NCBI GenBank assembly: GCA_007123775.1
Contig: SLGK01000001.1
Coordinates: forward strand, 2,120-66,119
Origin: Anaerolineae bacterium
GTDB taxonomy: Bacteria; Chloroflexota; Anaerolineae; Promineifilales; Promineifilaceae
DNA: 64,000 bases
Direction of reading: 5' to 3'
Shown: positions 201 through 56,425 of the stretch, piece after piece
How positions within the stretch are numbered: position 1 is the first letter of the stretch
How the letters are laid out: each line of letters opens with the position of its first letter
Translations under genes and position numbers: made by a program
Notes under the pieces: generated by a model
What the model was told of the DNA's origin: nothing
Databases searched by the model: none
Seen by the model: the letters and a program-made list of their open reading frames with translations, nothing else

Positions 201-2675
201 TTACGGCTCTACGGACAGCTCAACGATGGGCAAACTCTCGGCAGCGGGCGTCCCTACCAATTCGAGACGTTCGCCAGTCTGCCAGTTGTAAAAGCCGGTC
301 AGGAGCTGGTAGTTACCAGGGGGCGCGTCGGCCGGAACGGGAATGGCGTAGCGAGCCATGACGTAGTCGCCAATCGACCAATGCGCCATCGGATAGACAC
401 CCCGACAGGGATCGCCATCGTCCTGCCCCCACAGCGGCCCGCCGGTAGCGGAATTGAAGGCCGGACCCAACAGGTGATTGAAAGCGCTGATACGGCCGTC
501 TTGCGCCTCATCCACCCGATAATAGAGCGAGAAAAAAAGTATTTCCCCGGCCTGAACGGAAATCGCTGGCGGGTCAAAGCCGAGCAGGGTCAGACCATTG
601 GGCCATACGGCCGTTGCCGGTTGCGCTGGCTGCCATGCCTGAGCGGCCAGCCGGGGTGCCGCATACCCCAGATGATAAGGCGGCGGTTCAGGCAGCCACC
701 TTTCTGTTACCAGGCCGGTCCAGGGGAACAGGCTGGTAAGTTCGGGCAGCGGCGGCCGGCCCTCTGGCGGCAAGAAGGCCAGCAGATATTCATCCTCTGG
801 CGGCAAAACGGCACAGCCTGTGCCCGGATAAGCGGCCAGTCCGGTAGCCACATCGCCAGCCGCTACCGGCGCGTGGTCCGGCGGCGCATAATGGAGATAG
901 AGTGGCTCTGCCGGCCAAACCTGCCACAACAGTTCTTCCACGACGGCCGCCCGCGCCAGGTCAATCTCCAGGTTGCTGCGCGGCTCATCGTCGCCCCGGC
1001 TGGCTGGCCAGGGCCGGGTTTCACAGTCAGCGATCATGGCAGCCGTTAAAGTGCGCGCACCAAGCACTACCTTGTTGTCAGCCACCAGCTTGACGTTAGG
1101 CTGGAAACATTCCACGTAGCCCACCGGCGGGTAACGCTCGTGGGCCATACGGCGAAACAAGTCCGGGTCCACCGGATTTTGGGCCACCACGCGATCATTT
1201 AAGCCGTAGGTGTCGATAAAATTCACGGTAGGCAGCACCCAGGCCGGCACGCCAACCGGCCCGACGACAAGCACGGGATGCGTTTCGGGCGCAACCAGCA
1301 GACCCATCTCGCGGGGCGGATAGATAGCAACCTGATGCTCGTAAAATGCCTTGTGCTCTTGATGGCGCATGCCCACGTGGTGGGGAATTAGCCAGGCTTG
1401 CAGGCTATCAAACAGTTGGGTGTAAGGCTGCATCACGGCCGGAAAGTAGGGTGTCACCGGCACCACCATGACGTAGGTGTCCTCGCGGCTGGTCAGCTCG
1501 CGCGTCGCGGCCCAATGGGTCCACGGTATGGGGATTGCACTTAGAATGATGAGCGCCAGCATAAGGAGTGTCTGGCTGGCCGTAGCCGCCAGCGCATTGA
1601 GCAGCCAGACGGCCGTTAACAAGAGCAACGGGATTAGATGGCTGTATACCCGGTATTCAAAGAAGTCGCCGCCAATCAGAAACGTGTAGTAACTCAGGTG
1701 GGCCAACAAGACACCTACCGCGGCTAAGGTTACGGGCCAATGGGTGTCAAAAAGCAGCCGGTCGGGCCTGTGGCGCAGGCTGTGCGTAAAGCTGCGGGCC
1801 TGGCGCAACAGAAAGATCAAGACCAACGCCAGCCAAAACCATAGTGCGTATTCCAGGATAAAGGAGAGCAGGTAGCGAGCGCCGCTTGCCGGCCAGTAGG
1901 CCACCGACTTGGCCGCGTGGGTATTGGGCAGCCAGGCGTCGTAGGTCTGCCAGCGCCACAGAAAGTGAACGGCCGTAATGAGAAAGGGCGACAGGGGCGC
2001 AATATATTGGCGCAGGAGGTGGCCACGGTCTAGCTGACGAAAACGGCCGTCGTACCAGAGCCGCAACAGGCGCAGACCACCTAAAAGGAGAGTCGCCGCT
2101 ACCATTAGCAGACCGTCGGGCCGGGTCAGAGCCGTCAGAACGGCCGTAATAGAAAGCCAGGTCTGCCAGCGGGCCGTATAGCGGGGCAAGAAGAACAGCG
2201 CGTACAGCCAGGCCATCACCCAAAAGTTGAACATGGCCGTTTCCAGGCCGGAACTGCTCCACATGAGAAAGGTGCGGTTGGTCAACAGGCCCAGCAGCAG
2301 GAGTCCAACCAAACCCAATCGAACCCGGTCCAGAAACGGCCGTAGCGCCATCTGCCACAACATGGCCACGCTAAGCAGCAGCGAGCCGTAGGTAAAACCG
2401 AGTGAAATCAGGTTAGCCGACGCCGGCGGGGCCACGCCAGTCAAACGCCATACCAGGTCGAGCAAAATCACCCACAGAAAGCTGGTATACCCTTCTACCG
2501 GTCGAAACGGCGGCAAGTTCCAGGTATAGCCATAGCCGAGGTAGCTATTGCTCACATAGCGAAAGGCGATAAACGCATCATCGGTTAGAAACCAATACGC
2601 CTGCCACCCAACCCACAATCCGGCGGCAGCGGCCACCAATAGAAGGAACAATGTCCACGTTTGACGTCTGCTCAT
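201..2675 (-). CDS. Polytopic membrane protein, GT-C-fold glycosyl/arabinofuranosyl-transferase-like, with large soluble C-terminal domain
   Basis: 836-aa ORF from a TTG at 2711; the ATG at 2675 (MSRRQTW...) is preferred. The N-terminal ~480 aa has many hydrophobic helices with an early loop motif TDDAFIAFRY typical of GT-C enzymes, followed by a ~330-aa non-membrane domain. Confidence 0.65.
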   Translation of the reverse strand: MSRRQTWTLFLLLVAAAAGLWVGWQAYWFLTDDAFIAFRYVSNSYLGYGYTWNLPPFRPVEGYTSFLWVILLDLVWRLTGVAPPASANLISLGFTYGSLLLSVAMLWQMALRPFLDRVRLGLVGLLLLGLLTNRTFLMWSSSGLETAMFNFWVMAWLYALFFLPRYTARWQTWLSITAVLTALTRPDGLLMVAATLLLGGLRLLRLWYDGRFRQLDRGHLLRQYIAPLSPFLITAVHFLWRWQTYDAWLPNTHAAKSVAYWPASGARYLLSFILEYALWFWLALVLIFLLRQARSFTHSLRHRPDRLLFDTHWPVTLAAVGVLLAHLSYYTFLIGGDFFEYRVYSHLIPLLLLTAVWLLNALAATASQTLLMLALIILSAIPIPWTHWAATRELTSREDTYVMVVPVTPYFPAVMQPYTQLFDSLQAWLIPHHVGMRHQEHKAFYEHQVAIYPPREMGLLVAPETHPVLVVGPVGVPAWVLPTVNFIDTYGLNDRVVAQNPVDPDLFRRMAHERYPPVGYVECFQPNVKLVADNKVVLGARTLTAAMIADCETRPWPASRGDDEPRSNLEIDLARAAVVEELLWQVWPAEPLYLHYAPPDHAPVAAGDVATGLAAYPGTGCAVLPPEDEYLLAFLPPEGRPPLPELTSLFPWTGLVTERWLPEPPPYHLGYAAPRLAAQAWQPAQPATAVWPNGLTLLGFDPPAISVQAGEILFFSLYYRVDEAQDGRISAFNHLLGPAFNSATGGPLWGQDDGDPCRGVYPMAHWSIGDYVMARYAIPVPADAPPGNYQLLTGFYNWQTGERLELVGTPAAESLPIVELSVEP

Positions 2676-2756
2676 GGTTGGTATTATGGCACTGGGAAAA
2701 AGGAGGAGCAAACTGGGTGCCCGAAGTAATCTGGGGAAGACACCCCCAAAGGTAAA

Positions 2757-4260: not shown

Positions 4261-4929
4261 TTAAACCTCATCTCTCCGAGCCACAATAATGGCTACCGGC
4301 AGTCCCCACATGGACAGCCGGGACTGACTTTGAATCGTGAAGCCCGCTTTTTCTAGCTCTGTGTGAGCATAAATAGGGCGACAGTCCACTAAAACGGGCA
4401 GCCTGTCATGGAACCACTCATAAACACGAACGGCCGTTTTTGGCTCTTTGACCATGGAGACGACGACGATACGGCCGTTTGGTCGGAGAGCAGCATGAAT
4501 TTGCTCCAAAACAAGTGGGATTTCCGGGGTATCGAACAGTTCAAGGGTAAAGCTCATAAACAGCGCATCAAAACGGCCGTGGCTAAAAGGCAGTTGTGCC
4601 CCGTCTCCCACCTGCAACGATACTCGCTCTGCCAGACCCGCTTCTTGCACACGCTCCTGGGTAACGGCCGCCATTCCCGCCGATATATCCAGCCCATAGA
4701 CGTGTCCATCCGGCCCCACGGCCTGAGCCAGACTCACAATGGCGTGCCCGGTGCCGCAGCCAATCTCCAATATTTGCTCACCCTCGCGGGCCGCCAATGC
4801 TTGCAAACCAAGATTGCGGTATTTCTTCTCACTGGCCCCCACGAGCCAATCATACCAGCCGCTCAGGCGATCATAGTTGGCTTTAGCTTCTTTCTTGGTA
4901 CGGGTCACTGCTCTAATAGGGTTGTCCAT
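4261..4929 (-). CDS. Class I SAM-dependent methyltransferase (UbiE/Methyltransf_11-like)
   Basis: Motif I ILEIGCGTGH, post-I acidic residue (YGLDIS), and 222-aa size typical of small-molecule or RNA class I methyltransferases. Confidence 0.85.
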   Translation of the reverse strand: MDNPIRAVTRTKKEAKANYDRLSGWYDWLVGASEKKYRNLGLQALAAREGEQILEIGCGTGHAIVSLAQAVGPDGHVYGLDISAGMAAVTQERVQEAGLAERVSLQVGDGAQLPFSHGRFDALFMSFTLELFDTPEIPLVLEQIHAALRPNGRIVVVSMVKEPKTAVRVYEWFHDRLPVLVDCRPIYAHTELEKAGFTIQSQSRLSMWGLPVAIIVARRDEV

Positions 4930-10343: not shown

Positions 10344-12161
10344 TTATACAACGCCCAACTCTTGCAGCTTCGATTCAGGCACCACGCCATTCTCCCAGCC
10401 GCGAGCCGTGTAATACTCATCCAACATCAGGTCTAACTCACACACATGCCCTTCCGAACCGGGCATCGTCGACGGCTCTTCGGTGAAACGCTTCGGCAGA
10501 TAGTCGCTGCCCTCGCGGAAACCGGCCAGATTGTTGTAATGGCGCTCCAGGTTATAGATGCGCTCACCAGCGACCAGCACGTCATCCATGGTGAATGGCA
10601 CGCCGACCATCGCCGAATATTGGGCCGCATACTCCTCAGCCCCTTCGGCAAACGCGCTAAACTTGCACAGGTCCAGGCTGTCAGAGAAAGCGTGGATGTC
10701 TTGCAGCAGCTTGGTCAACTCACCCTTGCCTTTCCACTCCAGCGGGTCTGTTTGCAGCGGAATGAGGCCTAGCTCACTAGCGGGGGTGTAAGCCCGCAGG
10801 TGGCAGGCACCCCGGTTGCTGGTGGCATAGGCAATGCCCATACCCTTCAAACCACGCGGATCGTAGGCCGGTACACCCTGGCCTTTCACCGTCATGGCAA
10901 TTTCCATATGGCCATAATGCTCGGCCACCGCATTCACGCCGTTGGCCAGCACGTTACCAACACCCTCACGCTGGGCTACCTTCTTCATGGCTTCAATCAT
11001 ACCCATGTAGTCGCCTGATTTCAGACCACCGTCGCCATTGACAAAACCTTGCTCGGTCGCTTCGATGTAAGTACCTAACACATTGCCAATTTCGATGGCA
11101 TCCATGCCAAAGTCATTGGCCATCTGGATCATCTTGGCAATCGAGGCAGCGTTGTCGTTGCCACAGTTAGCCCCTAAAGCCCAGGCCGGCTCATACTCAA
11201 AGCTCTCCATATGGGTACCGGCAAACTCGCCCTCAGTAATCATGACCTCTTTCTTACAGGCCACGGGGCAGGCATGACAGGTCGGGTCTTTAACCAGGAT
11301 ATTTTCTTTGACGTACTCGCCACTGATGTTTTCGGCTTTCTCACCAAAGGAGGTGACACGGCCGTTATAAGCCGGTAACGCTCCCATATTGCTGGTGATG
11401 TTCATCAACACGTTGGTGCCATATACGGACAGGCCACCCTTACGCGGGCTGGTGATGTTCTTCTCGTCCATAATGGTGGCTAACGCCTGGCTGTGAGCGG
11501 GCTTCCAGGCTTCGGCGTCTTTCGGTTTGGGAAAATTCTTTTTGGCTTTGACTACCACTGCCTTAAGATTCTTACTGCCGCCGACACAACCGGTGCCGCC
11601 ACGACCGCTGGCCCGATCATCCTCATTGACCCAGCAACCATAGCGCACCATGTTTTCACCCGCCGGCCCAATCGCCATCACGGTCAAATCCTTTTCACCA
11701 TACAGATCACGGAAATGCTGAATCGTTTCATGGATGCCCTTGCCCCACAGATGGGAGGCATCTAAAAGCTCCATGCCGTCGTCGTGGATGTAGAGATAAA
11801 CAGGCTTGTCGGCTTTGCCTTTGAAAATGAGGCCATCATAGCCAGCCCAGCGCAGACGGGCGGCCGACCAGCCCCCATGATGGCTGTCGGTAACAGTGCC
11901 GGTCAGGGGAGATTTGGTGACAATCGCCATACGGCCGCTCATGTTAGCGGCCGTTCCTGTCAGGGGGCCGTTCATGAAGCAAAGCAAATTGTCGGGGGAA
12001 AGGGGGTCTACTTCGGGACCGTTTTCTAACATATAGCGCACGCCGAGACCGCGTGCGCCAATATACTTCAGTGCCCATTCTTCGGGAATAGGCTTCACCT
12101 CTATTTTACCTGCTGTCAGGTCAATGTGGGCCATTTGATTGGCGTATCCTCCGAGGTTCAT
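10344..12161 (-). CDS. aor: Aldehyde:ferredoxin oxidoreductase (tungsto/molybdo-pterin AOR family)
   Basis: 605 aa. The N-terminus MNLGGYANQMAHIDLTAGKIEVKPIPEEWALKYIGARGLG is the canonical AOR start, and the length and internal Cys motifs (CHACPVACKK) fit the [4Fe-4S]/pterin-binding family. Confidence 0.92.
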   Translation of the reverse strand: MNLGGYANQMAHIDLTAGKIEVKPIPEEWALKYIGARGLGVRYMLENGPEVDPLSPDNLLCFMNGPLTGTAANMSGRMAIVTKSPLTGTVTDSHHGGWSAARLRWAGYDGLIFKGKADKPVYLYIHDDGMELLDASHLWGKGIHETIQHFRDLYGEKDLTVMAIGPAGENMVRYGCWVNEDDRASGRGGTGCVGGSKNLKAVVVKAKKNFPKPKDAEAWKPAHSQALATIMDEKNITSPRKGGLSVYGTNVLMNITSNMGALPAYNGRVTSFGEKAENISGEYVKENILVKDPTCHACPVACKKEVMITEGEFAGTHMESFEYEPAWALGANCGNDNAASIAKMIQMANDFGMDAIEIGNVLGTYIEATEQGFVNGDGGLKSGDYMGMIEAMKKVAQREGVGNVLANGVNAVAEHYGHMEIAMTVKGQGVPAYDPRGLKGMGIAYATSNRGACHLRAYTPASELGLIPLQTDPLEWKGKGELTKLLQDIHAFSDSLDLCKFSAFAEGAEEYAAQYSAMVGVPFTMDDVLVAGERIYNLERHYNNLAGFREGSDYLPKRFTEEPSTMPGSEGHVCELDLMLDEYYTARGWENGVVPESKLQELGVV

Positions 12162-12512: not shown

Positions 12513-13736
12513 CTAAAAATGTTCCCGGTAAATGGGCAAATAGCGTACGCCTAAGGTAAAGAATAGCAACGAATAAGCCAGGATGCCCAGAGAGATAGCT
12601 ACTTCGATCATGGTGGGTGAATAAGAGACGGCCACGCCGGCCGCGCCAATCACACCCGGCGACCATTCCGGCGGCACCACCAGACCAGAAAGCGTCACGT
12701 TCCAACGATTGATGATGACGCCCATAACCACTAATCCCAATGCCGCCATCAACGCCTGCTCGTTACGCCGCCAGCGCGGGTAAAGCAGTATGACCGCGGG
12801 AATAACGCCCGCCAGCAGAATTTCCCACCACCAGAAGGTAAGCGTATAAGGTGTGGTGGCCTGCAAACGGGCCAGCGCATCGGCAATGCCGGGGCTAGAG
12901 CTGTAGTAAGTGGTGGCCGCCCAGTCCCACAGCTTGATGTAGAGATAGCCCACCGTGACGTACCCCACAAAGCGGGCAATCTCACGCTGCACATCGACTG
13001 ATACTAGCCGTCGATGGCGCAGTTTGCCCGTGACCATCGTTGCCAGCAGCGTCAGCGCCAACCCGCCGGCAATGGCCGACAAGATGAACATGATGGGCAT
13101 TGACGGTTTGAACCAGATAGCCCGCCCCGTCAATACGCCATACGTAGCCCCCAGAGATGATTGATGCAGCAGCGACAAAATCATGCCGACCAAAGCAAAG
13201 AAAGGTGTCGCTTTATGCAAATTATGGCTGAAACGACGCAGCCGGTTCCAGCCGTCAAACCAGCGCGTTTCGGCAATGATAGGAATAAATTCCAGCATCA
13301 ACACAGTCGAGTAAAGGATGACGCACCAGGTAATTTCCCACAGGACCGAGTGGACGTTCCAATAAACCAGGGGATGCCAGAAGCGGTCCGGCCGGCCGAT
13401 GTCCATAGCCAGCGCGAACATGGCCGAGGTATAGCCCAAAAAACCGACAAATACGGCCGGCCGGGCCAGTGGCTCCAATCTCTCAATACGAAAGAGGTAA
13501 ACGGCCGCTGAAAAAGTAAACGCCCCCGCCCCCAGCGCAATCGCCGACAGGTCATGGGTAATCCACAAACCCCAGGGCACCTGATCACTCAAATTGGTCT
13601 GGTACAGGCCGCGCAGCAAAATCTGTAATGCTGCAATCAGCCCGCCCAGCACCATCACGCTCAGCAGTGCCAGCCAGCCCATCAATGCTTTATTCATTCG
13701 TTTAGCGCCGTTCGTTAGCTCATTGAGCGTACCCAT
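12513..13736 (-). CDS. NrfD/PsrC-family integral membrane quinone-interacting subunit
   Basis: 407 aa with about 10 helices. Shows the NrfD-type pattern (WGLWITHDLSAIALGAGAF, PDRFWHP) and is coupled by a 1-nt overlap to the FeS subunit gene. Confidence 0.85.
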   Translation of the reverse strand: MGTLNELTNGAKRMNKALMGWLALLSVMVLGGLIAALQILLRGLYQTNLSDQVPWGLWITHDLSAIALGAGAFTFSAAVYLFRIERLEPLARPAVFVGFLGYTSAMFALAMDIGRPDRFWHPLVYWNVHSVLWEITWCVILYSTVLMLEFIPIIAETRWFDGWNRLRRFSHNLHKATPFFALVGMILSLLHQSSLGATYGVLTGRAIWFKPSMPIMFILSAIAGGLALTLLATMVTGKLRHRRLVSVDVQREIARFVGYVTVGYLYIKLWDWAATTYYSSSPGIADALARLQATTPYTLTFWWWEILLAGVIPAVILLYPRWRRNEQALMAALGLVVMGVIINRWNVTLSGLVVPPEWSPGVIGAAGVAVSYSPTMIEVAISLGILAYSLLFFTLGVRYLPIYREHF

Positions 13737-14623
13737 TACTCTCGTCTCCTATCAGCCCGCACGTAATGAACGTTTGGCTCAGTGCCAAAATCTTCACGCA
13801 GCCGGAAAGTGGGATTCTCGGCCATGTAGCGGGAAACCGGACTATCCGGGTCATTGGCATCCCCAAATACTCGCGCCCCCACGGGGCAGATATTAACGCA
13901 GGCAGGGGTGGCAGACCGATCAATACCGGGCATTAACCCTTGCTCTAACCCCCGGTCGATGCGATGCACACAGAAGGTACATTTTTCTACCACGCCACGA
14001 GCACGGCGCGGCACTTCAGCCGAGCCCCAGGTTGGTTGATAATCATTGGGTGTGTCTGGCTCGCGCCAGTTAAAGCGGCGGGCATCATAGGGGCAGGCCA
14101 CCTGACAGTAACGGCAGCCAATGCAGAGATCGTAATCCATATCCACCAGGCCATCAGGCCGCACCCAGGTCGCACCCACCGGACAGACGCGCACGCAGGG
14201 TGCGTCCTGGCAGTGCAGACAAGGCCGGGTCATATAAAACTCCTGGCCAGTAATGGTTCGCTCAGGGAAGCCAACGTTCCAGCGCATAGAGTCATCGGCC
14301 ACGTCGTTGACAGCCTGGCAGCCCCAGACGCAATAGTTACAACCGATACACTTCTCCAGGTCGATAACCATGTGCCAGTCATGCTCAGGCGAGCCTTCAC
14401 CGGGATGGAGCCGTTCGCCAATGCCCTCGATGGCGTCCGCCGAGAGCGGTCCAGAGACCACGACCTGGGTAAAAGCAACGGCCGCACCGGTGGCGCCAAC
14501 AATCTTCAAAAAGTCGCGCCGGTTAAGCAGGCCCTTGTCATCCTGTTTCTTTTTTGGTTTGGGTGTCTGTTCTTGTTCGCTCATAGGGCAATCAATCCGT
14601 GTTGTCTTCCTGATCTTCTTCAT
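13736..14623 (-). CDS. Tat-exported 4x[4Fe-4S] ferredoxin-type subunit (NrfC/PsrB/HmcB-like)
   Basis: Twin-arginine signal NRRDFLKIVGATGAAVAF. Cluster motifs CIGCNYCVWGC, CLHCQDAPCVRVCP, CIGCRYCQVACP, CTFCVHR...CVNICP. An alternative start at 14584 (MSEQEQ) is possible. Confidence 0.9.
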   Translation of the reverse strand: MKKIRKTTRIDCPMSEQEQTPKPKKKQDDKGLLNRRDFLKIVGATGAAVAFTQVVVSGPLSADAIEGIGERLHPGEGSPEHDWHMVIDLEKCIGCNYCVWGCQAVNDVADDSMRWNVGFPERTITGQEFYMTRPCLHCQDAPCVRVCPVGATWVRPDGLVDMDYDLCIGCRYCQVACPYDARRFNWREPDTPNDYQPTWGSAEVPRRARGVVEKCTFCVHRIDRGLEQGLMPGIDRSATPACVNICPVGARVFGDANDPDSPVSRYMAENPTFRLREDFGTEPNVHYVRADRRRE

Positions 14624-15623
14624 CCTCTTCGCTGCGGCGACGTACGTTGTGGGCCACCAGCCAGGCGGTTGTGCCGCCTAGCACCAGGCCAATGATGCCG
14701 CCTTGGAAGAGGATGGTAATGGTGCGGCTGGCCAGAGCCGCTTCAAGGGCCTGAACCTGTTGTTCCAGAAGTGCGCCGTTTTCGGCCACGAGGCGGGCCG
14801 GCGGCCGGCGGTCGGCCAGGCTGAGAGTAGGTGTTATGCCTTCATTGGCTACGGCACTGGCGCCACGCTCCCAACCGGGCAAGGAGAAACCGGCATGGAG
14901 CGCATCGGTGTGGCAGGCCACGCAGGTTGCCGGGGTAATGGTGAACTGGTGGCCGGTGGGCACCAGGCCATCAATCGGTATCTCTTCCGGCGGGATAACG
15001 AGCATGTGGCAGTCTACGCAGCCAATGCCTTCCTGAATGTGCAGATCTTCCAGGTAGTCACCCATGTCGTCTTGATGGCAGTTGATGCACATCTCGTCGG
15101 CTACGGGGAAAAGCGGCAGTTGGCTGTGGGGATCGTGGCAGGAGACGCAGCCAATGTCGCCGGCACCGTGCCCACTGAGTCGCCATTCACTGTGGGTGGG
15201 CGTATGGCAGGCACCGCAATATTCGGTGTCACTGCGGAGCGGGATAGGAGCTGGGGGATGGTCGGGATTAACCTCACCATGACAGGCTTCGCAGGTAATG
15301 CCTTCGGCCTTGAATGTGCCGGTGGTGGCATCATAGCCGGTGGTGTGGCAGGTCAAACATTCGCCGGGGTTGCCTTGTGCTTGCCACCATTCCTGAAAAA
15401 CGGGGTCGTCGTAGGCGTGGGCGTGGGCGCTGTCTTCCCAATTGCGGGCGACGTTAAGATGGCACGAAGCGCAGTCACTAGGGGCAACGTCCTCGGGCAC
15501 GTCACGCTCTTGGGCCTGAGTCACCTGCACGGCCGTAAAGGCCAGGACGAGCAGGAATATAGCTAATCCGGTCAGGAATGGCAGTAGGTGACTGGAAATA
15601 TTGGGGTGTTTTTTTCTGGCCAT
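14592..15623 (-). CDS. Octahaem c-type cytochrome with N-terminal signal/anchor and C-terminal TM helix
   Basis: Eight CxxCH motifs (CASCH, CLTCH, CEACH, CGACH, CVSCH, CINCH, CVDCH, CVACH). Hydrophobic N-terminus and a C-terminal helix IIGLVLGGTTAWLVA. Confidence 0.9.
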   Translation of the reverse strand: MARKKHPNISSHLLPFLTGLAIFLLVLAFTAVQVTQAQERDVPEDVAPSDCASCHLNVARNWEDSAHAHAYDDPVFQEWWQAQGNPGECLTCHTTGYDATTGTFKAEGITCEACHGEVNPDHPPAPIPLRSDTEYCGACHTPTHSEWRLSGHGAGDIGCVSCHDPHSQLPLFPVADEMCINCHQDDMGDYLEDLHIQEGIGCVDCHMLVIPPEEIPIDGLVPTGHQFTITPATCVACHTDALHAGFSLPGWERGASAVANEGITPTLSLADRRPPARLVAENGALLEQQVQALEAALASRTITILFQGGIIGLVLGGTTAWLVAHNVRRRSEEDEEDQEDNTD

Positions 15624-15656: not shown

Positions 15657-16613
15657 TCAAGCAACGGCCGTTTCCACTGCCATGGCTCTTCTACAGGCGG
15701 TTTCAAACTCAAGCAACACGGGATTACGGCCGTTATTGACAAAATTCCAAAAAGCGGTTTGAACCACACTGGCCGGATGGCGGCGCGAACGGCCGATAAA
15801 AATATCCTGCCCCATCTCTAGCCCGCTGACGCGCACCGTGACCACCCGGTCGGCCACCAGATAGTCAACAACCGATTGGGTCACAAAAGCCACCCCAATC
15901 CCTTCTTGCACGGCCAGGGCAATTGCTTCTGAATTACCCAACGTTAAGGTACCCGACAGTTGGCCCAGGGACAGGCCATGCTGCTGCAAACCATGGCCGA
16001 CGATAGCCCGTGTGCCAGACCCTTCTTCACGCATAATGAAGTTAGTCTCCAGCAGCTCGTGTGGCTCAATTATGGCCCGCTTGGACCAGGGATGGGTCGG
16101 AGGCACAATCAGCACCACCGGATCCGAAACCAGATGGCGAAACTCGGCATCGTCGCAAAAGTCGCTGGCGCTGGCCAACGCCAAATGGACATCGCCATCA
16201 CACAACATTTGCATGGATTGGGGGCGAGATGTAACGCGGCAAGTCGCCTGTACCTGCGGGTGACGCTTCAGGAAGTCGGCCAGCAGAAAGGGTAGAATGT
16301 ATTTACCACTGGTGGTGCTACAGCCCACGATCAAGTGCCCATACACCTCATCTTTCAAGGAGCGCATCGTCTCTTCAATATTGATAGACGCCCCAATTAA
16401 CTCCTGAGCCATCGGTATCAGGGCTTCGCCGGCATCGGTCAGAGAAACGCGACGGCCGCTGCGAATAAAAAGGGGCGTATCGAAATAATTCTCCAGTTCG
16501 CGGATGTGCTGGCTAACGCTGGGCTGGCTCATGTGCAACTGGCGGGCGGCAGCGGTGAAGTTTAGCGTACTAGCGGCGGTCAAAAAAACATTGAGTTGGT
16601 GTGCGTCTAACAT
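15657..16613 (-). CDS. LysR-family transcriptional regulator
   Basis: N-terminal HTH LNVFLTAASTLNFTAAARQLHMSQPSVSQHIRELE plus a LysR substrate-binding domain. The ATG at 16613 (MLDAHQL) is preferred over the TTG at 16625. Confidence 0.9.
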   Translation of the reverse strand: MLDAHQLNVFLTAASTLNFTAAARQLHMSQPSVSQHIRELENYFDTPLFIRSGRRVSLTDAGEALIPMAQELIGASINIEETMRSLKDEVYGHLIVGCSTTSGKYILPFLLADFLKRHPQVQATCRVTSRPQSMQMLCDGDVHLALASASDFCDDAEFRHLVSDPVVLIVPPTHPWSKRAIIEPHELLETNFIMREEGSGTRAIVGHGLQQHGLSLGQLSGTLTLGNSEAIALAVQEGIGVAFVTQSVVDYLVADRVVTVRVSGLEMGQDIFIGRSRRHPASVVQTAFWNFVNNGRNPVLLEFETACRRAMAVETAVA

Positions 16614-16626
16614 GACGTTCTCCAAG

Positions 16627-16807: not shown

Positions 16808-16834
16808 TAGGCAAAAACGATAGGCAAAACCTAT
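16808..16834. promoter_or_regulatory. Candidate LysR box (T-N11-A dyad) with an upstream half-repeat
   Basis: ATAGGCAAAACCTAT (16820-16834) is a dyad ATAGG-N5-CCTAT containing T-N11-A. ATAGGCAAAA is repeated at 16808-16817. It lies in the divergent region between the LysR gene and the cytochrome gene. Confidence 0.45.
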
Positions 16835-16962: not shown

Positions 16963-18483
16963 ATGCCCCATCCGCTTAAATTAGTTGTGGGCAGTCTGGC
17001 TGCTTTTGTTTTGCTCTTTGTGATCGCCTGCAGCCAGACAGCCGTCCCGGTTGATGTGGAGCCAATGGCTCCGGAACCGGTGGCGGTCGCCACAGAAATA
17101 CCTGCGCCAGAAGTAGAAGAGCCAGAACAAACAGAAACGGCCGTGGCTCCGCCCGTTGATGAATGTGTCGCCTGTCATATCGACAAAGACCGCATCATCG
17201 CCAACCTGGCCCCGGAAGAGGAGGTAATAAAAGAATCAGAAGGGGTGGGCTGAGGTGGTGATGTGGCTCCGTTGGAGCCATGGGAAAAAGTACTCATAAG
17301 CGCAGCCTTCCTGGACACGGTGCATGGTCACATGGCCTGTACCGACTGCCATCAAGGTGAGCAATCGCCAGAAAAAGAAATTGCCCACACCGACTTAATC
17401 CGTCGGCCCAGTATGGACCCCGAAGCAGCTTGTGGCGACTGCCATACCAACATTGCTTCGGTTCAGGCCAACAGCCTGCACGCTACGTTGGCCGGTTACA
17501 CAACCGTTTTACACGCTCGCAGCGCACCGGAACATCATGACACCCTGGATGAGATGTACAACAACCATTGTGCCTCTTGCCACGCCACCTGCGGTGACTG
17601 CCACGTCACCCAACCCTACTATGTCGGTGGTGGCTTCCTAAGCGGTCACGAGTTCCAGCGCACCCCGCCCATGACCCGCACCTGCACCGGTTGTCACGGC
17701 AGCCGCGTCGGGGACGAATACCTGGGCAAGCGGGAAGGGGTACGAGCCGATGTCCACTTCCGGCAGGGGCGCATGACCTGCGTTAGCTGCCATACCGGCG
17801 ACGAGATGCACGGCCAGCCCGACAACTGTCAGGATTGCCACGCCGGGCCAGTGCCCGACGAACCCATGCCGCGTGAGCATCGCTATCATGGGGTAGCCAA
17901 GCCAAGCTGCGGTAGCTGCCATGTGGAAGTGACCACCGGCCGTGACGGCAACGAGATGCACGAGCAGCACAGTGCCGACCTCTCTTGCCAGGTCTGCCAC
18001 TCGATTACTTATAGCAATTGTGAAAGTTGCCATGTGCAGATCAGCGACGTGACGGGCAATCCGTTCTACGTGTCGCAGAATACCTTTTACACCTTTTTGA
18101 TTGGGTTGAATCCGATCCGCAGCGCACAACGGCCGTATAAATACGTGCCTGTGCGCCGCATACCGGTAGACCCCGACAGCTACGTCTTCTACGGGGAAGA
18201 TCTGTTGCCTAACTTCGACGCTTTGCCGACCTGGGCGCACGCCACGCCCCACAACATTCAGCGCAACACGCCGCAGACCGAGTCTTGCAATAGCTGTCAC
18301 GGCAATGCGGCCATCTTCCTGACCGAAGATAAGCTGCTCAAAGAGACCCATCTGGAGGCCAACCGCCCCGTTTTGGTCACAACCATTCCGCCGCTGCTGG
18401 GCACGCCCATCACGGCCACAGAAACAATCACAATAACAGATGTTTTAACGCCGACTCAGCCTGTTGAGACGGATCAACCTTAA
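16963..18483 (+). CDS. 12-haem c-type cytochrome lipoprotein, read as one gene through an in-frame TGA at 17251-17253 (Sec, read-through, or disrupted)
   Basis: ORF 16963-17253 has a lipoprotein-type signal (LLFVIACSQ), an acidic Pro/Glu linker and 1 CxxCH. ORF 17263-18483 is in the SAME frame, has 11 CxxCH and no signal peptide. Only TGA plus 3 codons separate them. Counter-evidence: an SD-like GAGGTG sits 5 nt before the GTG at 17263. Confidence 0.55.
17254..17282 (+). promoter_or_regulatory. SECIS-like hairpin downstream of the in-frame UGA
   Basis: Exactly 11 nt after TGA comes GGCTCC-GTT-GGAGCC (17265-17279). The stem extends by T-A and two G.U pairs (17262-17282) and the apical loop contains GU. 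Confidence 0.4.
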
Positions 18484-18490
18484 ACGAGTT

Positions 18491-18554
18491 AGTGCGTAGT
18501 GCGTAATGCGTAATGATAAAGGTCTACGCACTACGTACCACGCACTACGTTACG
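18491..18554. repeat. Inverted pair of heptamer arrays (GTGCGTA/GTGCGTA/ATGCGTA versus CTACGCA/CTACGTA)
   Basis: Left arm 18491-18515 and right arm 18524-18554, between the cytochrome stop and the rhodanese start. The ORF-track start at 18513 reads through it. Confidence 0.85.
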
Positions 18555-18563
18555 GAGGACAAG

Positions 18564-20366
18564 ATGAAAACCCGTTTGTACCTACTGATTACACTATTAT
18601 TGAGCCTTAGCCTGCTCCTGATGGCTTGTAACGGTGCGGCCGATCCCGTCGTGGAAGAGCCGCCGGCCGTTGAAGTCGAAGAACCGGCCGTGCCGGAACC
18701 AGAAGTTGAAGAGCCGGTTGAGGAAGTGGTAGAACCAGAACCGGAACCAGAACCGGCCTTTACTGAAGAGGATTTGGATGCGGCCGTTAACGCCATGCTA
18801 GGCCGGATGACCGCCTACAACACCATTCGCCCCGACGCCCTCAATGAAGCCCTGGCCGAAGACCCGCCCTTCATTCTGGACGTGCGTCGGCCGGCCGAAC
18901 TGGAAGAGCTAGGCCACATCCCCGGTGCGGTTCACGTACCCCTGAACGATCTGCACGAAAATCTGGATAAACTACCCAGCTTTGATACCCCCATCGTCAC
19001 CTACTGTGCCGTAGGCTGGCGCTGCACCATTGCCATGACCGCCATGGAAACCTTGGGCTGGCAAAATGTGCGTGCGCTGGTTGGCGGCAGCTTTGGCGGC
19101 TGGGCCAATGCCGGATATGAAATCGTAGACGGCTTCCCGCCTGAAGCCGAAGTCCTCAATGCGGCCAGCCCTGACCCAGAACTGCTGGCTGAAGTACAAC
19201 AAATGATGGCCAATATCCCGCAAGGCTTTGGCGTTATCACCACCGACGACCTGTTTGCCAAACTGGTTGATACCCCGGACGTGCTGTTGATTGACGTGCG
19301 CCGCGCCGAAGAATTGGAAGATAACGGCATCATTGAATCGGACAACCAGATGCAAATTGCCATTGAAGATTTTGTTGCCATGCGGGACATGTGGCCGCAA
19401 GATAAGGATGCGGAGATCATCATCTACTGTGGCACCGGCCACCGTTCCACCATTGCCATGACCATCATGTGGATGTATGGCTATACCGACGTCCGCAGCA
19501 TGAAGGGTGGTATTGCCGAATGGCGTGCCGATGGCTACCCCGTTCTGGGTGGCGCCGAGCCGGAAGAGGCTGACCTGGATGCCGCTTTTGCCAATTTCAT
19601 CGACAATATGGTGGCTTATAACACCATCCGGCCGGCCGCTTTGAATGAGCTGCTGATCGAAGACCCGCCTCCCTTCATCCTCGACGTGCGCCGTCCGGCC
19701 GAATTGGAAGAACTGGGCCACATTGAAGGTGCCGTTCACATCCCCCTGCCCGAAATTGGGGATAACCTCGACCTGCTGCCCAGCTTTGACACGCCGATTG
19801 TGACCTACTGTGCCGTAGGCTGGCGCTGCACCATTGCCATGACCGCTCTAAGCGCCATGGGCTGGACTGACGTCAAGGCGTTGGTCGGTGGCAGCTTTGG
19901 TGGTTGGGTCAATGAAGGCTACCCGGTCGTTGACGGCCCGGCGGCTGAGGCGATGGTTCTTAACGCAGCCAGCCCCGACCCGGCTCTGGCCGAAGCATTG
20001 GGCGATATGCTGCGGAATGTGCCGCAGGGCTTTGGCGTCATCACCACCGATGACCTGGCCCTGGAGTTGATTGACAAGCCAGAGATGCAGTTGATCGACG
20101 TGCGGACAGTAGGTGAGGTTGAGGAAAACGGCCGTATCGAATCTGACGGCCAACTGCTCATCCCCATCGAAGCATTCATTGAGCGCATGGATGAATGGCC
20201 GGCCGACAAAGATATGGAAATTGTTATCTACTGTGGCACCGGCCACCGCTCGACCATTGCCATGACCATCATGTGGAGCTATGGCTATACCAACGTCCGC
20301 AGCATGAAGGGTGGCCTGGCGGAATGGAGTGCTGATGGCTATCCGGTGGTGGAGTTTGCTCAATAG
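18564..20366 (+). CDS. Lipoprotein with four rhodanese (sulfurtransferase) domains
   Basis: Signal plus lipobox LLLMACNG preceded by GGAGGA. Acidic PE-rich linker. Two CAVGWRC and two CGTGHRS active-site loops. It is built as a tandem duplication of a two-domain unit. Confidence 0.88.
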   Translation: MKTRLYLLITLLLSLSLLLMACNGAADPVVEEPPAVEVEEPAVPEPEVEEPVEEVVEPEPEPEPAFTEEDLDAAVNAMLGRMTAYNTIRPDALNEALAEDPPFILDVRRPAELEELGHIPGAVHVPLNDLHENLDKLPSFDTPIVTYCAVGWRCTIAMTAMETLGWQNVRALVGGSFGGWANAGYEIVDGFPPEAEVLNAASPDPELLAEVQQMMANIPQGFGVITTDDLFAKLVDTPDVLLIDVRRAEELEDNGIIESDNQMQIAIEDFVAMRDMWPQDKDAEIIIYCGTGHRSTIAMTIMWMYGYTDVRSMKGGIAEWRADGYPVLGGAEPEEADLDAAFANFIDNMVAYNTIRPAALNELLIEDPPPFILDVRRPAELEELGHIEGAVHIPLPEIGDNLDLLPSFDTPIVTYCAVGWRCTIAMTALSAMGWTDVKALVGGSFGGWVNEGYPVVDGPAAEAMVLNAASPDPALAEALGDMLRNVPQGFGVITTDDLALELIDKPEMQLIDVRTVGEVEENGRIESDGQLLIPIEAFIERMDEWPADKDMEIVIYCGTGHRSTIAMTIMWSYGYTNVRSMKGGLAEWSADGYPVVEFAQ

Positions 20367-35410: not shown

Positions 35411-38158
35411 TTACATGGCGCCAGCAAACCAGTGGCGCACCAGCTCAACGCGGAACATGTATCCATCCGCAACGGCCGTAATCAGTTCCCGACGCTGCAA
35501 CCGACTCAGGCTTTCTTCCAGCGCCATCAGGCTGGGAATGTACTCTACCAATCTTTGCCGGGGAACGATCTCACCTGCAGGCGACTGCGCCAACAGACGT
35601 AAGACTTCGCGCCCCACGTTGTCAACCTGATTTTGTTCAATATCGGCAAAAAAGAAGCTGCCATGCGTGAGCGCGGCGGGTACGGCCGTTTCCACATCCG
35701 CCACGGTAGCCAGACGACGCACCGCTGGCTCCTGCTCATTTTTTAGCGCAACCACCTCCGCACAGAGAAGCTGCACCAGGAAAGGGTGACCGGCTGTTAA
35801 GGCCCACACGCGCTCGCTGGCGGCCGTTTCATAGCGCAGGGCAAAGTCATGCACCGGCTGCTCTACCAGTTGGCGCGTTTCCGCCTGGCTCAGGTAGCCA
35901 ATGTGGATTAACTGCACGTTGATCAGGTAGCTGGACCAGCGTTGAAACTCATCGAGCGTGTGCGAGCCGGCAAACAGCACCTTGAAGCGTGGCCGATGCT
36001 GAATCAGGTGGCGCAGCATACCAAGAATGGCGCTTTCGTTGAAACGGCCGTTGGCCAGAGCCGTAGCCAATACCTCAAATTCATCCAGCATCAGCAGGGC
36101 CAGTTGGTCATCCAGCGCCACCTCTACCTCATCCAGCCACTCATCAAAGCGCGTAAAGGGATCGACCGCCAATTCATCCCGTCCCAGCGGCGGGATGGTC
36201 AGAAGCCGCTGCCGCCGGGCCGAACGGGCGATACTACGGCCGATATTGTACAAAAAGCCTACCTCATCCTGCGCTCGTGAAGCCGGTCCCTGCAGGTCCA
36301 CAAACAGGGGCACCACCGTGGTGGGTAACAGGCGGCCCAGATTATTCAGCAGCGACGTTTTGCCCACGCGCCGCTGGCCATAGAGCAATAACGGCGGTTG
36401 ACGACGGTCAACCAACAACTGCTCAATACGGCTGCTGATGTCGGTACGCCCCACAAAAATCTCTTGCTGGTCGGTCAGCGGCACGCCGATGATGTAAGGA
36501 CTATCAATCTCCTGGCGCAGCTCTGCCTCCTCGGCCAACTGCTGCTTTTGCCCGGCCACCAGCCGCCGCCAGCGGGCGGCAATCGGCCGAAACCGAATGG
36601 CATATTCATCATTACTGCGGGTCAGCTCACGCAGCAGACCGTCCAGCCGCTCTTCGGCCGCGCCCAGCGCCAGCCGCCGGTTGTAGATGCTTTCCTGCCG
36701 CAGGGCAGCCTCAATATCGCGGCTGACCCGGCTAAAGCTGCGCAGCAGGGCGCTGGCCGGGCCGGACAATTCTCCGACCGCCACGTCATGATGCACTCGC
36801 CCCACGTCGGCGACCGTCTGGCAATTGGCCATCGTGCGGGCGTCTAGCTCAATCTGAGCGGCCTGCGCTGCCCAACGCTGCCGGCTGGTTGAGAGATAAT
36901 CGAGAGCGGCCGTGCCAAACGACGGCTGCTGTTCCAAAACGAGTAATAGATGACCATCCAGACCCAGCAGCGGCAGCCGTTGAAACTCATCCCAGAAGGC
37001 AGAGTGCCAGCGCAAAAGCGGCCGGCGACCGGCCGCCAGTCGCGGCTCATCCAACTGCCAGAGCAGCTTGTTCCACAGCGCGGTCAGCGGATACAGCACC
37101 ACAGGTCGCCACCAGGCCAGGACCAATCCCAAAAGCAAGCCCAAAAAGCTAAAAACCATCAGCGGCAAAATCGACTGGGGCGAAGCCACCAGCATAAACA
37201 GGCCACCGGCGCCGCCCAGCGAGCCAGCCAACGCACCGGCGGCGGTGCCGGCCATGCGCTCGGCCAGCACATAGGGCAGCGCGAAAAGTGCTGCCAGCAG
37301 GGCGACCAGGGCCAACATTGTCCAGGGACCAGGCAGAGTGACGACATTCAACAGCGTGCCGGCCAGGCTGCCCGCCAGGCCAACAACGGCCCCGCCGGTA
37401 AGCGAATAAATCCAGCGGCCGGTGCGCCCAAAGAGAGCCAGGCCAAAGGGTACGCCAATGGTCAGGGCGGTGGCTAACTGTCCTTCAACCATTGTTACCA
37501 ACAGGCCAAATCCAAGACCGATCAGGCTGCCCACCAACACACCCCCGGTCTGTCGGGTCAAGGAGTATATGCGGCTGACATTGGTAGCCGAACCGGAAAT
37601 ACCGGCAGCCACGGCAAAGGCCAGGCCGCCGGCCAGGCCGCCGGCCAAACCGATCAGCGTGCTGGCTAACAGGTCAAAGGGCAGTTCTGACACCTGTGTC
37701 GAGAAGAGGGCACTGTGGCCTAATGTCATGATGACCGCCGGACCGATAAGAAGGCCAACGGCCATGCCCACGGCAATGCCTACGGGCAAACTGGCCACAA
37801 TACTGACCGCCAGACTGATCACCAGACTGATGCTCACGCCCAGGATGATGCCGGTCAGGGCTGCTGGCGGCGGTGCGCCCGCAAGCCAGGCAAAAAGGGC
37901 CACGACGCCCCCTAACAGCAGCGGCCAGATGAGATAGCTCATCAACAAGAAGCGCCAGACAGACCAGGTTGTCAGATGGCGCAGCGTCAGGTCAGACAGG
38001 GAAAATGAGGGGGACAAGCCAACCTCAAGCCGCTCCAAATGATGCCGCCAGGCCGAGGGATGAACAAACAGCCAAAAAAGGAGTTGCAGGCTACCTATAA
38101 TAAAGCTGCTATGCAGCCGAGGAGCGTCGGTGAACAACTGATGGCCGTTAGGCTTCAT
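35411..38158 (-). CDS. Membrane-embedded P-loop ATPase: N-terminal Gly/Ala-rich polytopic domain plus STAND/Orc-like ATPase plus C-terminal wHTH-like end (subfamily B)
   Basis: About 330 aa of hydrophobic, glycine-zipper-like helices, then a helical region, Walker A GQRRVGKTSLL, Walker B LLMLDEFE, TAGHPFLVQLLC, and C-terminal LSRLQRRELI. The start overlaps the upstream gene by 11 nt. Confidence 0.8.
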   Translation of the reverse strand: MKPNGHQLFTDAPRLHSSFIIGSLQLLFWLFVHPSAWRHHLERLEVGLSPSFSLSDLTLRHLTTWSVWRFLLMSYLIWPLLLGGVVALFAWLAGAPPPAALTGIILGVSISLVISLAVSIVASLPVGIAVGMAVGLLIGPAVIMTLGHSALFSTQVSELPFDLLASTLIGLAGGLAGGLAFAVAAGISGSATNVSRIYSLTRQTGGVLVGSLIGLGFGLLVTMVEGQLATALTIGVPFGLALFGRTGRWIYSLTGGAVVGLAGSLAGTLLNVVTLPGPWTMLALVALLAALFALPYVLAERMAGTAAGALAGSLGGAGGLFMLVASPQSILPLMVFSFLGLLLGLVLAWWRPVVLYPLTALWNKLLWQLDEPRLAAGRRPLLRWHSAFWDEFQRLPLLGLDGHLLLVLEQQPSFGTAALDYLSTSRQRWAAQAAQIELDARTMANCQTVADVGRVHHDVAVGELSGPASALLRSFSRVSRDIEAALRQESIYNRRLALGAAEERLDGLLRELTRSNDEYAIRFRPIAARWRRLVAGQKQQLAEEAELRQEIDSPYIIGVPLTDQQEIFVGRTDISSRIEQLLVDRRQPPLLLYGQRRVGKTSLLNNLGRLLPTTVVPLFVDLQGPASRAQDEVGFLYNIGRSIARSARRQRLLTIPPLGRDELAVDPFTRFDEWLDEVEVALDDQLALLMLDEFEVLATALANGRFNESAILGMLRHLIQHRPRFKVLFAGSHTLDEFQRWSSYLINVQLIHIGYLSQAETRQLVEQPVHDFALRYETAASERVWALTAGHPFLVQLLCAEVVALKNEQEPAVRRLATVADVETAVPAALTHGSFFFADIEQNQVDNVGREVLRLLAQSPAGEIVPRQRLVEYIPSLMALEESLSRLQRRELITAVADGYMFRVELVRHWFAGAM

Positions 38159-55107: not shown

Positions 55108-56425
55108 AGCCATGAGCATCCACAATCCTTTCTACCATCGGGGCGCGATCCGGCAGGCGGACGACTTTTACGGCCGTTCCGCCGAAATCAATCAGATACT
55201 GGGCCTGCTGCAAAACGGGCAGAGCGTATCCCTGATCGGACCACGCCGCATCGGCAAGAGTTCGCTGCTGCTGCACCTGTGCCGGCCCGAAGTACGCGCC
55301 AACCTCAACCTGGCCCCGCCGCAGGCCCTCTTTGTCCTGCTCGACTGCCAGGAACTGGGCGGTTCACCCCCCGAAGAGGTGTACGAGGTATTGCTCGACA
55401 ACCTGCTCGACGCGGCCCAGGCAGCCAACATTGCCGTCAGGGGTGACTCGCAGCAGGCCACCTACCGCGCTCTGGACCGCGTGTTGCAACAGATTACCGA
55501 CCGTGGCACGACCGTTGTCGTTCTCCTCGACGAATTTGAGCTACTGGCCGCCAACAGCCATTTAACCCCCTACTTTTTTGCCCGGCTGCGCGGCCTGACC
55601 ACCAAATATGGCTTAGCGTATCTGACGGCGACGCAACGGCCGTTATTCGCCGTCACCGCTGAAGAAGAAATCCTCAGCTCCCCTTTCTTCAACATTTTCG
55701 TCACTCTGCCTTTGGGACTGTTCACCGCCACCGAAGCACGCGGCCTGGTAAACCAGCGACTACACGAAACATCGGTGCAGTTCAGTGAAGCACTTATTGA
55801 TCATCTCCTCCACCTGGCTGGCAGCCACCCCTTCTTTCTCCATGTAGCTGGCTACCACGCCTATCAAGCCCTGCTGCAAGAGCAACCATCGTTGGCCAAC
55901 GGCCAGTTCGCCTGGCTCGATGATCCCATCGAAATGGAAGCCGCCTCTCACTTGAGCTATCTGTGGCAAAACCTGAGCGCGGAAGAACAATACGCGCTGA
56001 CCATTGGCACCGGCCCCATTGACTGCCTGCGGCTGCTGGAACAACAATGCCTGCTGGAAAACGATAACGGTAGCTACCACTACACCAGCGACATTTTGCG
56101 CCGCTTTGTGCGTCGGCAGAAGGTAGAGGGCGTCATTCAGTTTGGCCCCTTCGTCATCGACCAGCAACGTCACCAGGTATGGGGTGATGGCCAGGAATTA
56201 AGCCTGACTACTTCGCAATTCAGCCTTTTTGTACGGCTGGCTGAGCAAGCGCAGCAAGTGGTGCATGGAGCTGATTTGGAAACGGCCGTTTGGGGGGATG
56301 TGCTGGTGGATGATCCCGACCGACTCAAAACCTTGATCAAGCGGTTGCGCCGCTCTCTTGACCCCTTCGGCCACTGGATTGTCAGCGAACGGGGGGTAGG
56401 CTATGCGTTACGAACACCCGACTGA
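55091..56425 (+). CDS. P-loop ATPase (subfamily A) fused to a C-terminal OmpR/PhoB-type winged-helix DNA-binding domain
   Basis: The ATG at 55091 follows GGAGGAG. Walker A LIGPRRIGKSSLL, Walker B VVVLLDEFE, SPFFNIF. C-terminal FGPFVIDQQRHQVWGDGQELSLTTSQFSLFVRL...RLKTLIKRLRRSL...GVGYAL is a Trans_reg_C pattern. Confidence 0.8.
   Translation: MSDYNKAMSIHNPFYHRGAIRQADDFYGRSAEINQILGLLQNGQSVSLIGPRRIGKSSLLLHLCRPEVRANLNLAPPQALFVLLDCQELGGSPPEEVYEVLLDNLLDAAQAANIAVRGDSQQATYRALDRVLQQITDRGTTVVVLLDEFELLAANSHLTPYFFARLRGLTTKYGLAYLTATQRPLFAVTAEEEILSSPFFNIFVTLPLGLFTATEARGLVNQRLHETSVQFSEALIDHLLHLAGSHPFFLHVAGYHAYQALLQEQPSLANGQFAWLDDPIEMEAASHLSYLWQNLSAEEQYALTIGTGPIDCLRLLEQQCLLENDNGSYHYTSDILRRFVRRQKVEGVIQFGPFVIDQQRHQVWGDGQELSLTTSQFSLFVRLAEQAQQVVHGADLETAVWGDVLVDDPDRLKTLIKRLRRSLDPFGHWIVSERGVGYALRTPD

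Follow-up and report, generated by a model that had tools for sequence, protein, structure and literature searches.

Does a TGA codon within a multihaem cytochrome c gene end that gene, or is it read as an amino acid? The question is raised by a 64,000-nucleotide stretch of contig SLGK01000001.1 from an Anaerolineae bacterium (Chloroflexota), referred to here as the window. At 16963–18483 on its forward strand lies one frame of 506 codons that is interrupted once, by a TGA at 17251–17253. The part 5' of the TGA (the N-part, 96 codons) carries a lipoprotein signal and one CxxCH haem-binding motif, and the part 3' of it (the C-part, 409 codons) carries eleven CxxCH and no export signal. A sequence-only reading, made without database searches, had described two open reading frames (ORFs) in one frame parted by a TGA, with the only export signal on the 5' side, eleven CxxCH on the 3' side, and a hairpin, GGCUCC-GUU-GGAGCC, beginning 11 nt past the UGA and extendable to 9 bp. 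All of these features were found as described.

That reading had also proposed that the UGA is recoded as selenocysteine (Sec), making the two ORFs one exported polypeptide. Is this the case? Or are there two genes, or an error in the sequence? The conservation of both TGA and hairpin across species supports the proposal, and we consider that 16963–18483 is very probably a single Sec-encoding gene with UGA decoded at codon 97. The evidence for this is the conservation of the TGA, selection on the hairpin as RNA, the existence of homologues with a Cys codon at the same position and of homologues that are unsplit, and the presence of eleven haem sites in a part without an export signal. The features of the cytochrome gene, including a hairpin resembling a selenocysteine insertion sequence (SECIS), are as follows.

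16963..18483, forward strand: putative Sec cytochrome gene, complete; single frame with one internal TGA; 506 residues, 12 CxxCH, lipoprotein
16963..17031, forward strand: lipoprotein signal peptide, lipobox LLFVIAC (Cys23); the sole export signal of the cytochrome
17164..17178, forward strand: first haem-binding motif, CVACH, residues 68–72; 5' of the putative Sec codon and present in 86/86 N-parts
17251..17253, forward strand: in-frame TGA, predicted to be read as Sec97, within the motif E-S-E-G-V-G-U-G-G-D-V-A-P-L-E-P-W-E-K
17262..17282, forward strand: SECIS-like hairpin, 9-bp stem and GUU loop, recognized by its fold, its conservation and its frozen synonymous sites

The CxxCH motifs are at residues 68, 126, 157, 203, 210, 241, 273, 289, 316, 342, 353 and 442. 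Every cysteine of the cytochrome is either Cys23 or a member of a CxxCH, and no conserved Cys outside CxxCH and lipobox was found across 121 aligned sequences. Outside the motifs 13 His and 3 Met are conserved, enough to ligate twelve haems without Sec97.

Conservation of the TGA codon in Chloroflexota

Homologous loci were drawn from one genome per GTDB species, giving 80 loci from at least 592 matching stretches, 79 of which cover the TGA site. The sequence-only reading had suggested that homologues be aligned to see whether Cys or TGA fills this column and whether the gene is unsplit. TGA is present at the homologous column in 77 of the 79 species-level Chloroflexota loci, the other two having TTT and TGG. 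The flanks align without insertions or deletions (E-[SN]-x-G-[VE]-G-U-G-G-[EDS]-V-A-P-L-E-P-W-E-K-V), and elsewhere the C-parts of the species-level loci are about 63% identical (median). A signal peptide whose lipobox is of the L-x-[GAS]-C type is present in each of the 86 N-parts, as is the first CxxCH.

A protein search returned approximately 2000 relatives of the cytochrome, nearly all from metagenome-assembled genomes of Anaerolineae and other Chloroflexota. Most have been called as proteins of 380–415 amino acids that begin just past the TGA column, and a minority as full-length proteins of 480–530 amino acids. Where the column is occupied by C, W, L, F, H or M, the long homologue is one uninterrupted ORF. 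Cys is encoded there by TGC in L081 and L083 and by TGT in L082 (proteins P0087, P0024 and P0101).

Within the window's own lineage, an independent metagenome assembly from ENA (L095) has 3 mismatches in 8.8 kb (99.97% identical) and keeps the identical TGA and hairpin. The sequence-only reading had allowed for a sense codon or a truncation in the underlying data; the same TGA in this assembly speaks against both. Gene callers split the cytochrome of the window into a 96-amino-acid ORF and an ORF of about 400 amino acids, and the same split is seen in L095.

TGA is at the same time a normal stop codon in these genomes. It ends 5 of the 39 window ORFs, being the rarest of the three stops there (TAA 20, TAG 14), and it ends the cytochrome gene itself in 9 of 78 loci.

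The hairpin downstream of the UGA

The core of the hairpin is formed by GGCUCC at 17265–17270, a GUU loop at 17271–17273 and GGAGCC at 17274–17279; of the nine pairs in its extended form, the outer two are G.U. A 66-nt segment folds at -24.8 kcal/mol, with z = -2.8 against shuffles. The segment GUGGCUCCGUUGGAGCC is nearly invariant in the 78 TGA-type sequences, and the GUU loop is invariant in all 78.

This conservation extends to synonymous sites. Within the hairpin Ala is always GCT (74/74, against 14.7% of the Ala codons in the rest of these genes), Pro is always CCG (78/78, against 39.5%), Leu is always TTG (78/78, against 21%) and Glu is always GAG (78/78, against 37%), while Val is GTG in 76 of 78. 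The invariant residues that flank the hairpin, Gly+1, Gly+2, Pro+9, Glu+11 and Lys+12, use all of their synonymous codons. This free choice of codon serves as an internal control for shared ancestry.

The alignment also fits a paired structure. For the 8-bp stem, 93.6% of cells are paired, compared with 38–50% when the 3' arm is slid by 1–3 columns. At pair 16:28 the distinct sequences have G-C (44), G-U (4) and C-G (3). The C-G form needs two amino-acid swaps, from AP..EP to PP..EA, and is found in L018, L042, L058 and L012, the last of which has close relatives in Leptofilum with G-C; it probably arose more than once.

What happens to the hairpin where the UGA is absent? Nine homologues have a sense codon at the column (TGC, TGT, TGC, TGG, TTA, TGG, CTG, TTT and TGG), and in six of the nine the frozen sites have drifted (CCA, CCT, CTG, TTA, GAA) or the hairpin is gone. 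The constraint on the RNA tracks the UGA, as is predicted for a SECIS.

In E. coli fdhF, the SelB-binding upper stem begins 11 nt past the UGA and has G-U in its apical loop. The hairpin described here shares the location within the coding sequence directly 3' of the UGA, the 11-nt spacing and the apical G-U. As part of the Sec reading, it is very likely that the hairpin acts as a SECIS, and it is a candidate binding site for an Anaerolineae SelB. It would recruit SelB and Sec-tRNA to the ribosome at the UGA, so that translation would continue rather than stop. Such a small and sharply defined SECIS should be useful for predictors for the Anaerolineae clade.

Selenocysteine and its alternatives

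Several observations weigh against Sec at codon 97. Homologues without the TGA mostly have W, L, F, H or M in its place, Cys being found in 3 of the 14 cleanly aligned long forms, which is atypical for a catalytic Sec and indicates a scaffold able to work without it. The W/L/F/H/M replacements could reflect a residue at a distal haem face, or these lineages could have dropped the chemistry, the latter fitting their loss of the rhodanese described below. An AlphaFold model of the natural Cys homologue P0101, haem-free, has a mean predicted local distance difference test score (pLDDT) of 81 and a predicted template modelling score of 0.74, and is only moderately confident at the Sec loop (pLDDT about 59–68). 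The hairpin is small (6–9 bp, 3-nt loop), much shorter than the E. coli fdhF SECIS and without its bulged U, and no Rfam SECIS or other family matches it at gathering or permissive thresholds. Formal covariation involves one pair only, as the other pairs never vary; it is thin because the stem hardly varies, and the case is made mainly by the synonymous-site constraint and its relaxation. Finally, a search of the 64-kb window and of 1.56 Mb from homologous loci revealed no selA, selB, selD or tRNA-Sec, which says nothing about the rest of the genome.

The lack of sel genes in the window had already been noted in the sequence-only reading and is borne out by NCBIfam annotation of essentially all window ORFs, which revealed none. 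ARAGORN found no tRNA-Sec in the window or in 60 loci, and tblastn of E. coli SelA, SelB and SelD against the 1.56 Mb gave one match, in L009, which is translation initiation factor 2 (IF-2). FdhF-like genes in L076 and L080 were considered as selenoproteins on the same contigs and set aside as uninformative, since they have Val or Cys at the Sec position. Support from the wider group is at the level of the order only: SelB and Sec-type formate dehydrogenases are encoded in single-cell genomes of Anaerolineales, and SelB in Anaerolinea thermophila as well (PMC4959059). Chloroflexi possess tRNA-Sec (PMC5389517) and selenoproteins (PMC1794560). An 8/4 structure is reported for the tRNA-Sec of Chloroflexi.

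Could the UGA be recoded as something other than Sec? Hairpin-stimulated Trp read-through, or a Cys-charged tRNA-Sec-like tRNA, would still produce one cytochrome. The lack of Sec machinery in the regions searched would agree with this, as would the homologues with TGG (Trp) or TGC/TGT (Cys), which are presumably functional, and bacterial tRNA-Sec-like tRNAs with other identities exist (PMC5389517). One base change would give Trp or Cys, yet 77 of 79 loci keep TGA together with a costly constraint on the RNA, and a stem-loop 11 nt past the UGA with an apical G-U is a SelB-type arrangement in a group in which SelB is encoded, the Anaerolineales (PMC4959059). In addition, a sulfur-transfer partner coupled to the cytochrome suggests that the chemistry of residue 97 is that of a chalcogen. 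Recoding to another amino acid is on these grounds unlikely.

Two separate genes are less probable still. Here the TGA would be a true stop, the 11-haem protein would restart at GTG 17263 or a nearby TTG, and the hairpin would tune re-initiation. The sequence-only reading had drawn attention to a purine run resembling a Shine-Dalgarno sequence, GAGGTG, before this GTG. The run is present, but it consists of the TGA and the conserved Gly-Gly codons, and the proposed restart codon is GTA, which is no start codon, at two loci. Gene callers and RefSeq do annotate the C-part alone as a hypothetical protein of about 400 amino acids, as in the complete Ca. Leptofilum chromosome in RefSeq (P0061). However, haem c is attached covalently outside the cytoplasmic membrane, and the C-part with its eleven CxxCH never has a signal peptide of its own. 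The possibility of two genes, the second with its own signal peptide, had been raised in the sequence-only reading, and the homologues are not so arranged: frame and spacing across the TGA are the same in 77 species, protein conservation runs through it, and the sense-codon homologues are single polypeptides.

A pseudogene, or a base-call or assembly error in the window, is hardly credible, for although a lone in-frame stop in an intact gene resembles a point error, and an unrelated in-frame TAG is present in L016, the same TGA recurs in 77 species-level genomes and in the near-identical independent assembly, with both flanks strongly conserved. A reassigned genetic code was rejected because TGA terminates other genes and, in some loci, the cytochrome gene. 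The TAG in L016 is about 278 codons past its TGA (10214) and homology continues beyond it, pointing to a pseudogene or assembly error at that locus.

Rhodanese partner, quinone module and possible function

The Sec cytochrome gene is followed on the same strand by a rhodanese gene, with an intercistronic spacer of 80 nt.

18483..18551, forward strand: strong intercistronic stem-loop, from the cytochrome stop towards the rhodanese start; -33.4 kcal/mol, z = -4.9, 0/200 shuffles as stable
18564..20366, forward strand: four-domain rhodanese lipoprotein (lipobox LLLMAC); Pfam Rhodanese, 4 stretches, 222 bits

The start of the rhodanese is likely the ATG at 18564, behind GGAGG; the mechanical ORF opens at 18513. 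All four domains keep the active-site Cys loop (CAVGWR, CGTGHR, CAVGWR, CGTGHR), and no Sec of the LYCAU type was found in the partner rhodaneses, in which every active site is Cys. The intercistronic stem-loop has no U-tract and so is no classical terminator; it may be involved in mRNA processing or stability, or in setting the relative expression of the two genes.

That a rhodanese gene adjoins the cytochrome had been pointed out in the sequence-only reading, and the link is far stronger than could be seen there. The rhodanese is directly downstream on the same strand in 77 of 79 loci. Among loci with at least 3 kb downstream, it follows the cytochrome in all TGA loci (73/73) and in the one Cys locus (1/1), compared with 1 of 5 W/L/F loci, or 1 of 6 if L090 is counted, in which the called genes show no rhodanese. 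For the association of the rhodanese with TGA/Cys as against W/L/F loci, Fisher p is between 3e-6 and 2.5e-7. The exception, L088, has TGG and keeps the rhodanese; its hairpin is almost complete, and its change from TGA was probably recent.

Three other observations concern the rhodanese. From 10175 in L010, the ORF past the TGA has 1021 amino acids, with 11 CxxCH and rhodanese active-site loops, and reads as a fusion; it was not used as evidence because its tail looks frameshifted and it comes from a long-read metagenome-assembled genome, so that it may be an artefact. Several JGI entries name the cytochrome of about 400 amino acids 'thiosulfate/3-mercaptopyruvate sulfurtransferase'. In L086 (8634–9921), a Leu form with no multi-domain rhodanese downstream, genes for TusA, a YeeE/YedE-type protein (Sulf_transp) and a small single-domain rhodanese are nearby, another sulfur-trafficking setting for the same cytochrome scaffold.

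Divergent from the cytochrome are a regulator gene and three genes of a predicted quinone module.

16820..16834, no strand assigned: candidate LysR box ATAGGCAAAACCTAT (T-N11-A dyad) in the divergent LysR/cytochrome intergenic region, on weak evidence from the sequence
15657..16625, reverse strand: LysR-family regulator; best NCBIfam match 'selenium metabolism-associated LysR', 195 bits, below the cutoff of 250
14592..15623, reverse strand: octahaem c-type cytochrome, 8 CxxCH, N-terminal membrane anchor or signal; kept in 59–60 of about 64 loci with enough flank
13736..14623, reverse strand: 4Fe-4S subunit (DsrO/QrcC/PsrB type) exported by twin-arginine translocation (Tat); NF045797 DsrO 205 bits (cutoff 200), Pfam TAT_signal/Fer4, RRDFLK
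12513..13736, reverse strand: NrfD/PsrC-type quinone/quinol membrane subunit; Pfam NrfD 98.7 bits (cutoff 25.8), QrcD 288 bits, below the cutoff of 570

A LysR homologue is within 8 kb in 72 of 79 loci. The half-site ATAGGCAAAA precedes the dyad within 16808–16834, and upstream of the cytochrome in 84 loci ATAGG-N5-CCTAT is found in 10 and ATAAG-N5-CTTAT in 7. The NrfD subunit and the Tat-exported 4Fe-4S subunit, each conserved in 62 of the roughly 64 loci, are encoded together, which identifies an NrfD/PsrC-type module. The octahaem cytochrome, which presumably carries electrons between the quinol module and the Sec cytochrome, resembles the C-terminal haem region of NF041198 (UshA-like; E = 1e-13, far below cutoff) and also matches DmsE-type decahaem models. 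The trio of periplasmic multihaem cytochrome, Tat 4Fe-4S protein and NrfD subunit in this module is shared with Qrc, the DsrOP part of DsrMKJOP, PsrBC and NrfCD. Unlike these, the module here has no molybdopterin catalytic subunit, its terminal partner being the Sec cytochrome with the rhodanese. The module persists in the non-Sec loci. At 10344–12161 (reverse strand), beside NrfD, the window encodes a tungsten-type aldehyde:ferredoxin oxidoreductase, followed by MoaD/ThiS-like small proteins; the arrangement is also present in L095–L097. The oxidoreductase is absent from the other 79 loci and is therefore outside the conserved module.

To what known systems can the Sec cytochrome be compared? 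The sequence-only reading had thought that a Sec-containing multihaem cytochrome would be remarkable, but there are precedents. MccSep (ExtKL, gsu2937-2936), a periplasmic polysulfide/selenite reductase of Geobacter sulfurreducens, has five haems, and its Sec325 adjoins one with His/Cys ligation. For a long time it was taken for two ORFs, and its gene neighbours that of ExtH, a rhodanese lipoprotein (PMC13510729). Its homologues are reported chiefly from Desulfobacterota and Nitrospirota, Chloroflexota not being mentioned (PMC13510729). A 2026 selenoproteome review lists ExtKL, the GSU2204 family, UshA-like proteins and an OTR-type octahaem cytochrome, haem c selenoproteins having turned up piecemeal via curated models (PMC13188914).

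Like MccSep, the window cytochrome is an extracytoplasmic multihaem c-type protein with one UGA-Sec codon, here a predicted one, and a SECIS-like hairpin in frame. Both have been split into two ORFs in annotation, both are encoded beside a rhodanese-family lipoprotein, and in both a minority of homologues have Cys for Sec. MccSep, a proven polysulfide/selenite reductase, is plausibly its best functional analogy. The two differ in haem number (12 against 5) and in the location of Sec, which is at 97 of 506 in G-U-G-G here and in a C-terminal Ig-like domain (D-G-U-P) in MccSep. Without a conserved Cys outside CxxCH, the window cytochrome has no counterpart of the haem-ligating Cys239, and its non-Sec homologues mostly have W, L, F, H or M. 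It is a lipoprotein and belongs to Chloroflexota, MccSep being soluble in the periplasm and found in Desulfobacterota/Nitrospirota. The MccSep/ExtKL profile NF040886 gave no match to it at E <= 0.01, and only weak generic haem-domain matches were seen; the window cytochrome is no member of that family. The window rhodanese scores 23.5 bits against ExtH (NF040901, cutoff 200) and, with its four domains, is an analogue and not an orthologue.

The OTR octahaem (TIGR04315), GSU2204 (NF041027) and UshA-like (NF041198) families are likewise haem c proteins with a UGA read as Sec, and none of the three matches the Sec cytochrome at E <= 0.01. TsdA, SoxAX and DsrJ, the analogy drawn in the sequence-only reading, are c-type cytochromes that act on sulfur compounds with a chalcogen side chain near or on the haem iron, as the Sec cytochrome may do; phmmer searches against solved structures showed no sequence similarity between them and it. 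Only generic haem-motif matches were found by phmmer among PDB sequences (best E = 0.03), and Foldseek with the P0101 model gave no match at E <= 0.001, which is weak evidence since multihaem cytochromes have little secondary structure. The literature searched contains no description of a Sec 12-haem cytochrome family. From its sequence, this appears to be a new and undescribed selenoprotein family of a recently established kind, the multihaem cytochrome selenoproteins with rhodanese.

The system probably serves respiration as an oxidoreductase of sulfur or selenium compounds. Retention and loss of Sec go with those of the rhodanese, and the NrfD-FeS-octahaem module persists; from this we infer a core for electron transfer, made up of the haem scaffold and its quinone link, to which Sec97 and the rhodanese are added as a catalytic pair. 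The chances seem about even that this pair is a sulfur/selenium relay wired to the menaquinone pool. In such a relay, the mature cytochrome would be on the outer face of the cytoplasmic membrane, with Sec97, its sole free chalcogen side chain, in a glycine-rich loop (G-U-G-G). The rhodanese, presumably co-transcribed, would bind sulfane sulfur (or selenium) as a persulfide and present it to Sec97. The Se-S (or Se-Se) adduct would be reduced, or formed oxidatively, with electrons travelling via the twelve haems, and the haem chain would join menaquinone through the octahaem cytochrome/Tat-FeS/NrfD module. Both operons would be controlled by the LysR regulator. Candidate substrates are polysulfide, thiosulfate, tetrathionate or selenite, and the direction may be either reductive or oxidative. 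The whole would work in the manner of MccSep-ExtH, the polysulfide/selenite reductase system of Geobacter, with a cytochrome unrelated to MccSep.

The role of Sec97 itself can be suggested more tentatively. It is possible, if rather doubtful, that it is either an axial ligand of a haem (His/Sec) or the direct acceptor of sulfane sulfur or selenium from the rhodanese, with no resolving Cys. The presence of C, H, M or bulky W, L or F where the TGA has been lost is as might be expected at a distal haem face. To our knowledge, no His/Sec-ligated haem is known in nature. If true, either role would be a new catalytic design, for sulfur/selenium respiration in monoderm-type Chloroflexota.

In activated sludge, sediments and aquifers, Anaerolineae rank with the most abundant bacteria, and the family looks to be widespread and unannotated in them; in all database entries examined the gene is split or truncated and labelled a hypothetical protein. 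Reading the UGA as Sec would restore a 12-haem exported enzyme to the annotation. MccSep, itself characterised only in 2026, would also be joined by a second family of multihaem selenoproteins, unrelated to it. The joint retention or loss of Sec and a four-domain extracytoplasmic rhodanese points to a relay wired to the quinone pool, and if this is true the Chloroflexota gain an unrecognised role in sulfur or selenium cycling.

Elsewhere in the window, large ORFs at 201–2711 (reverse strand), 35411–38158 (reverse strand) and 56403–61436 (forward strand, 1677 amino acids) have no NCBIfam match. No in-frame TGA was seen at 4261–4929 (reverse strand), which encodes an S-adenosylmethionine-dependent methyltransferase with weak likeness, far below cutoffs, to the MTase_UXPK_star, ArsM fusion and MduS selenoprotein families.

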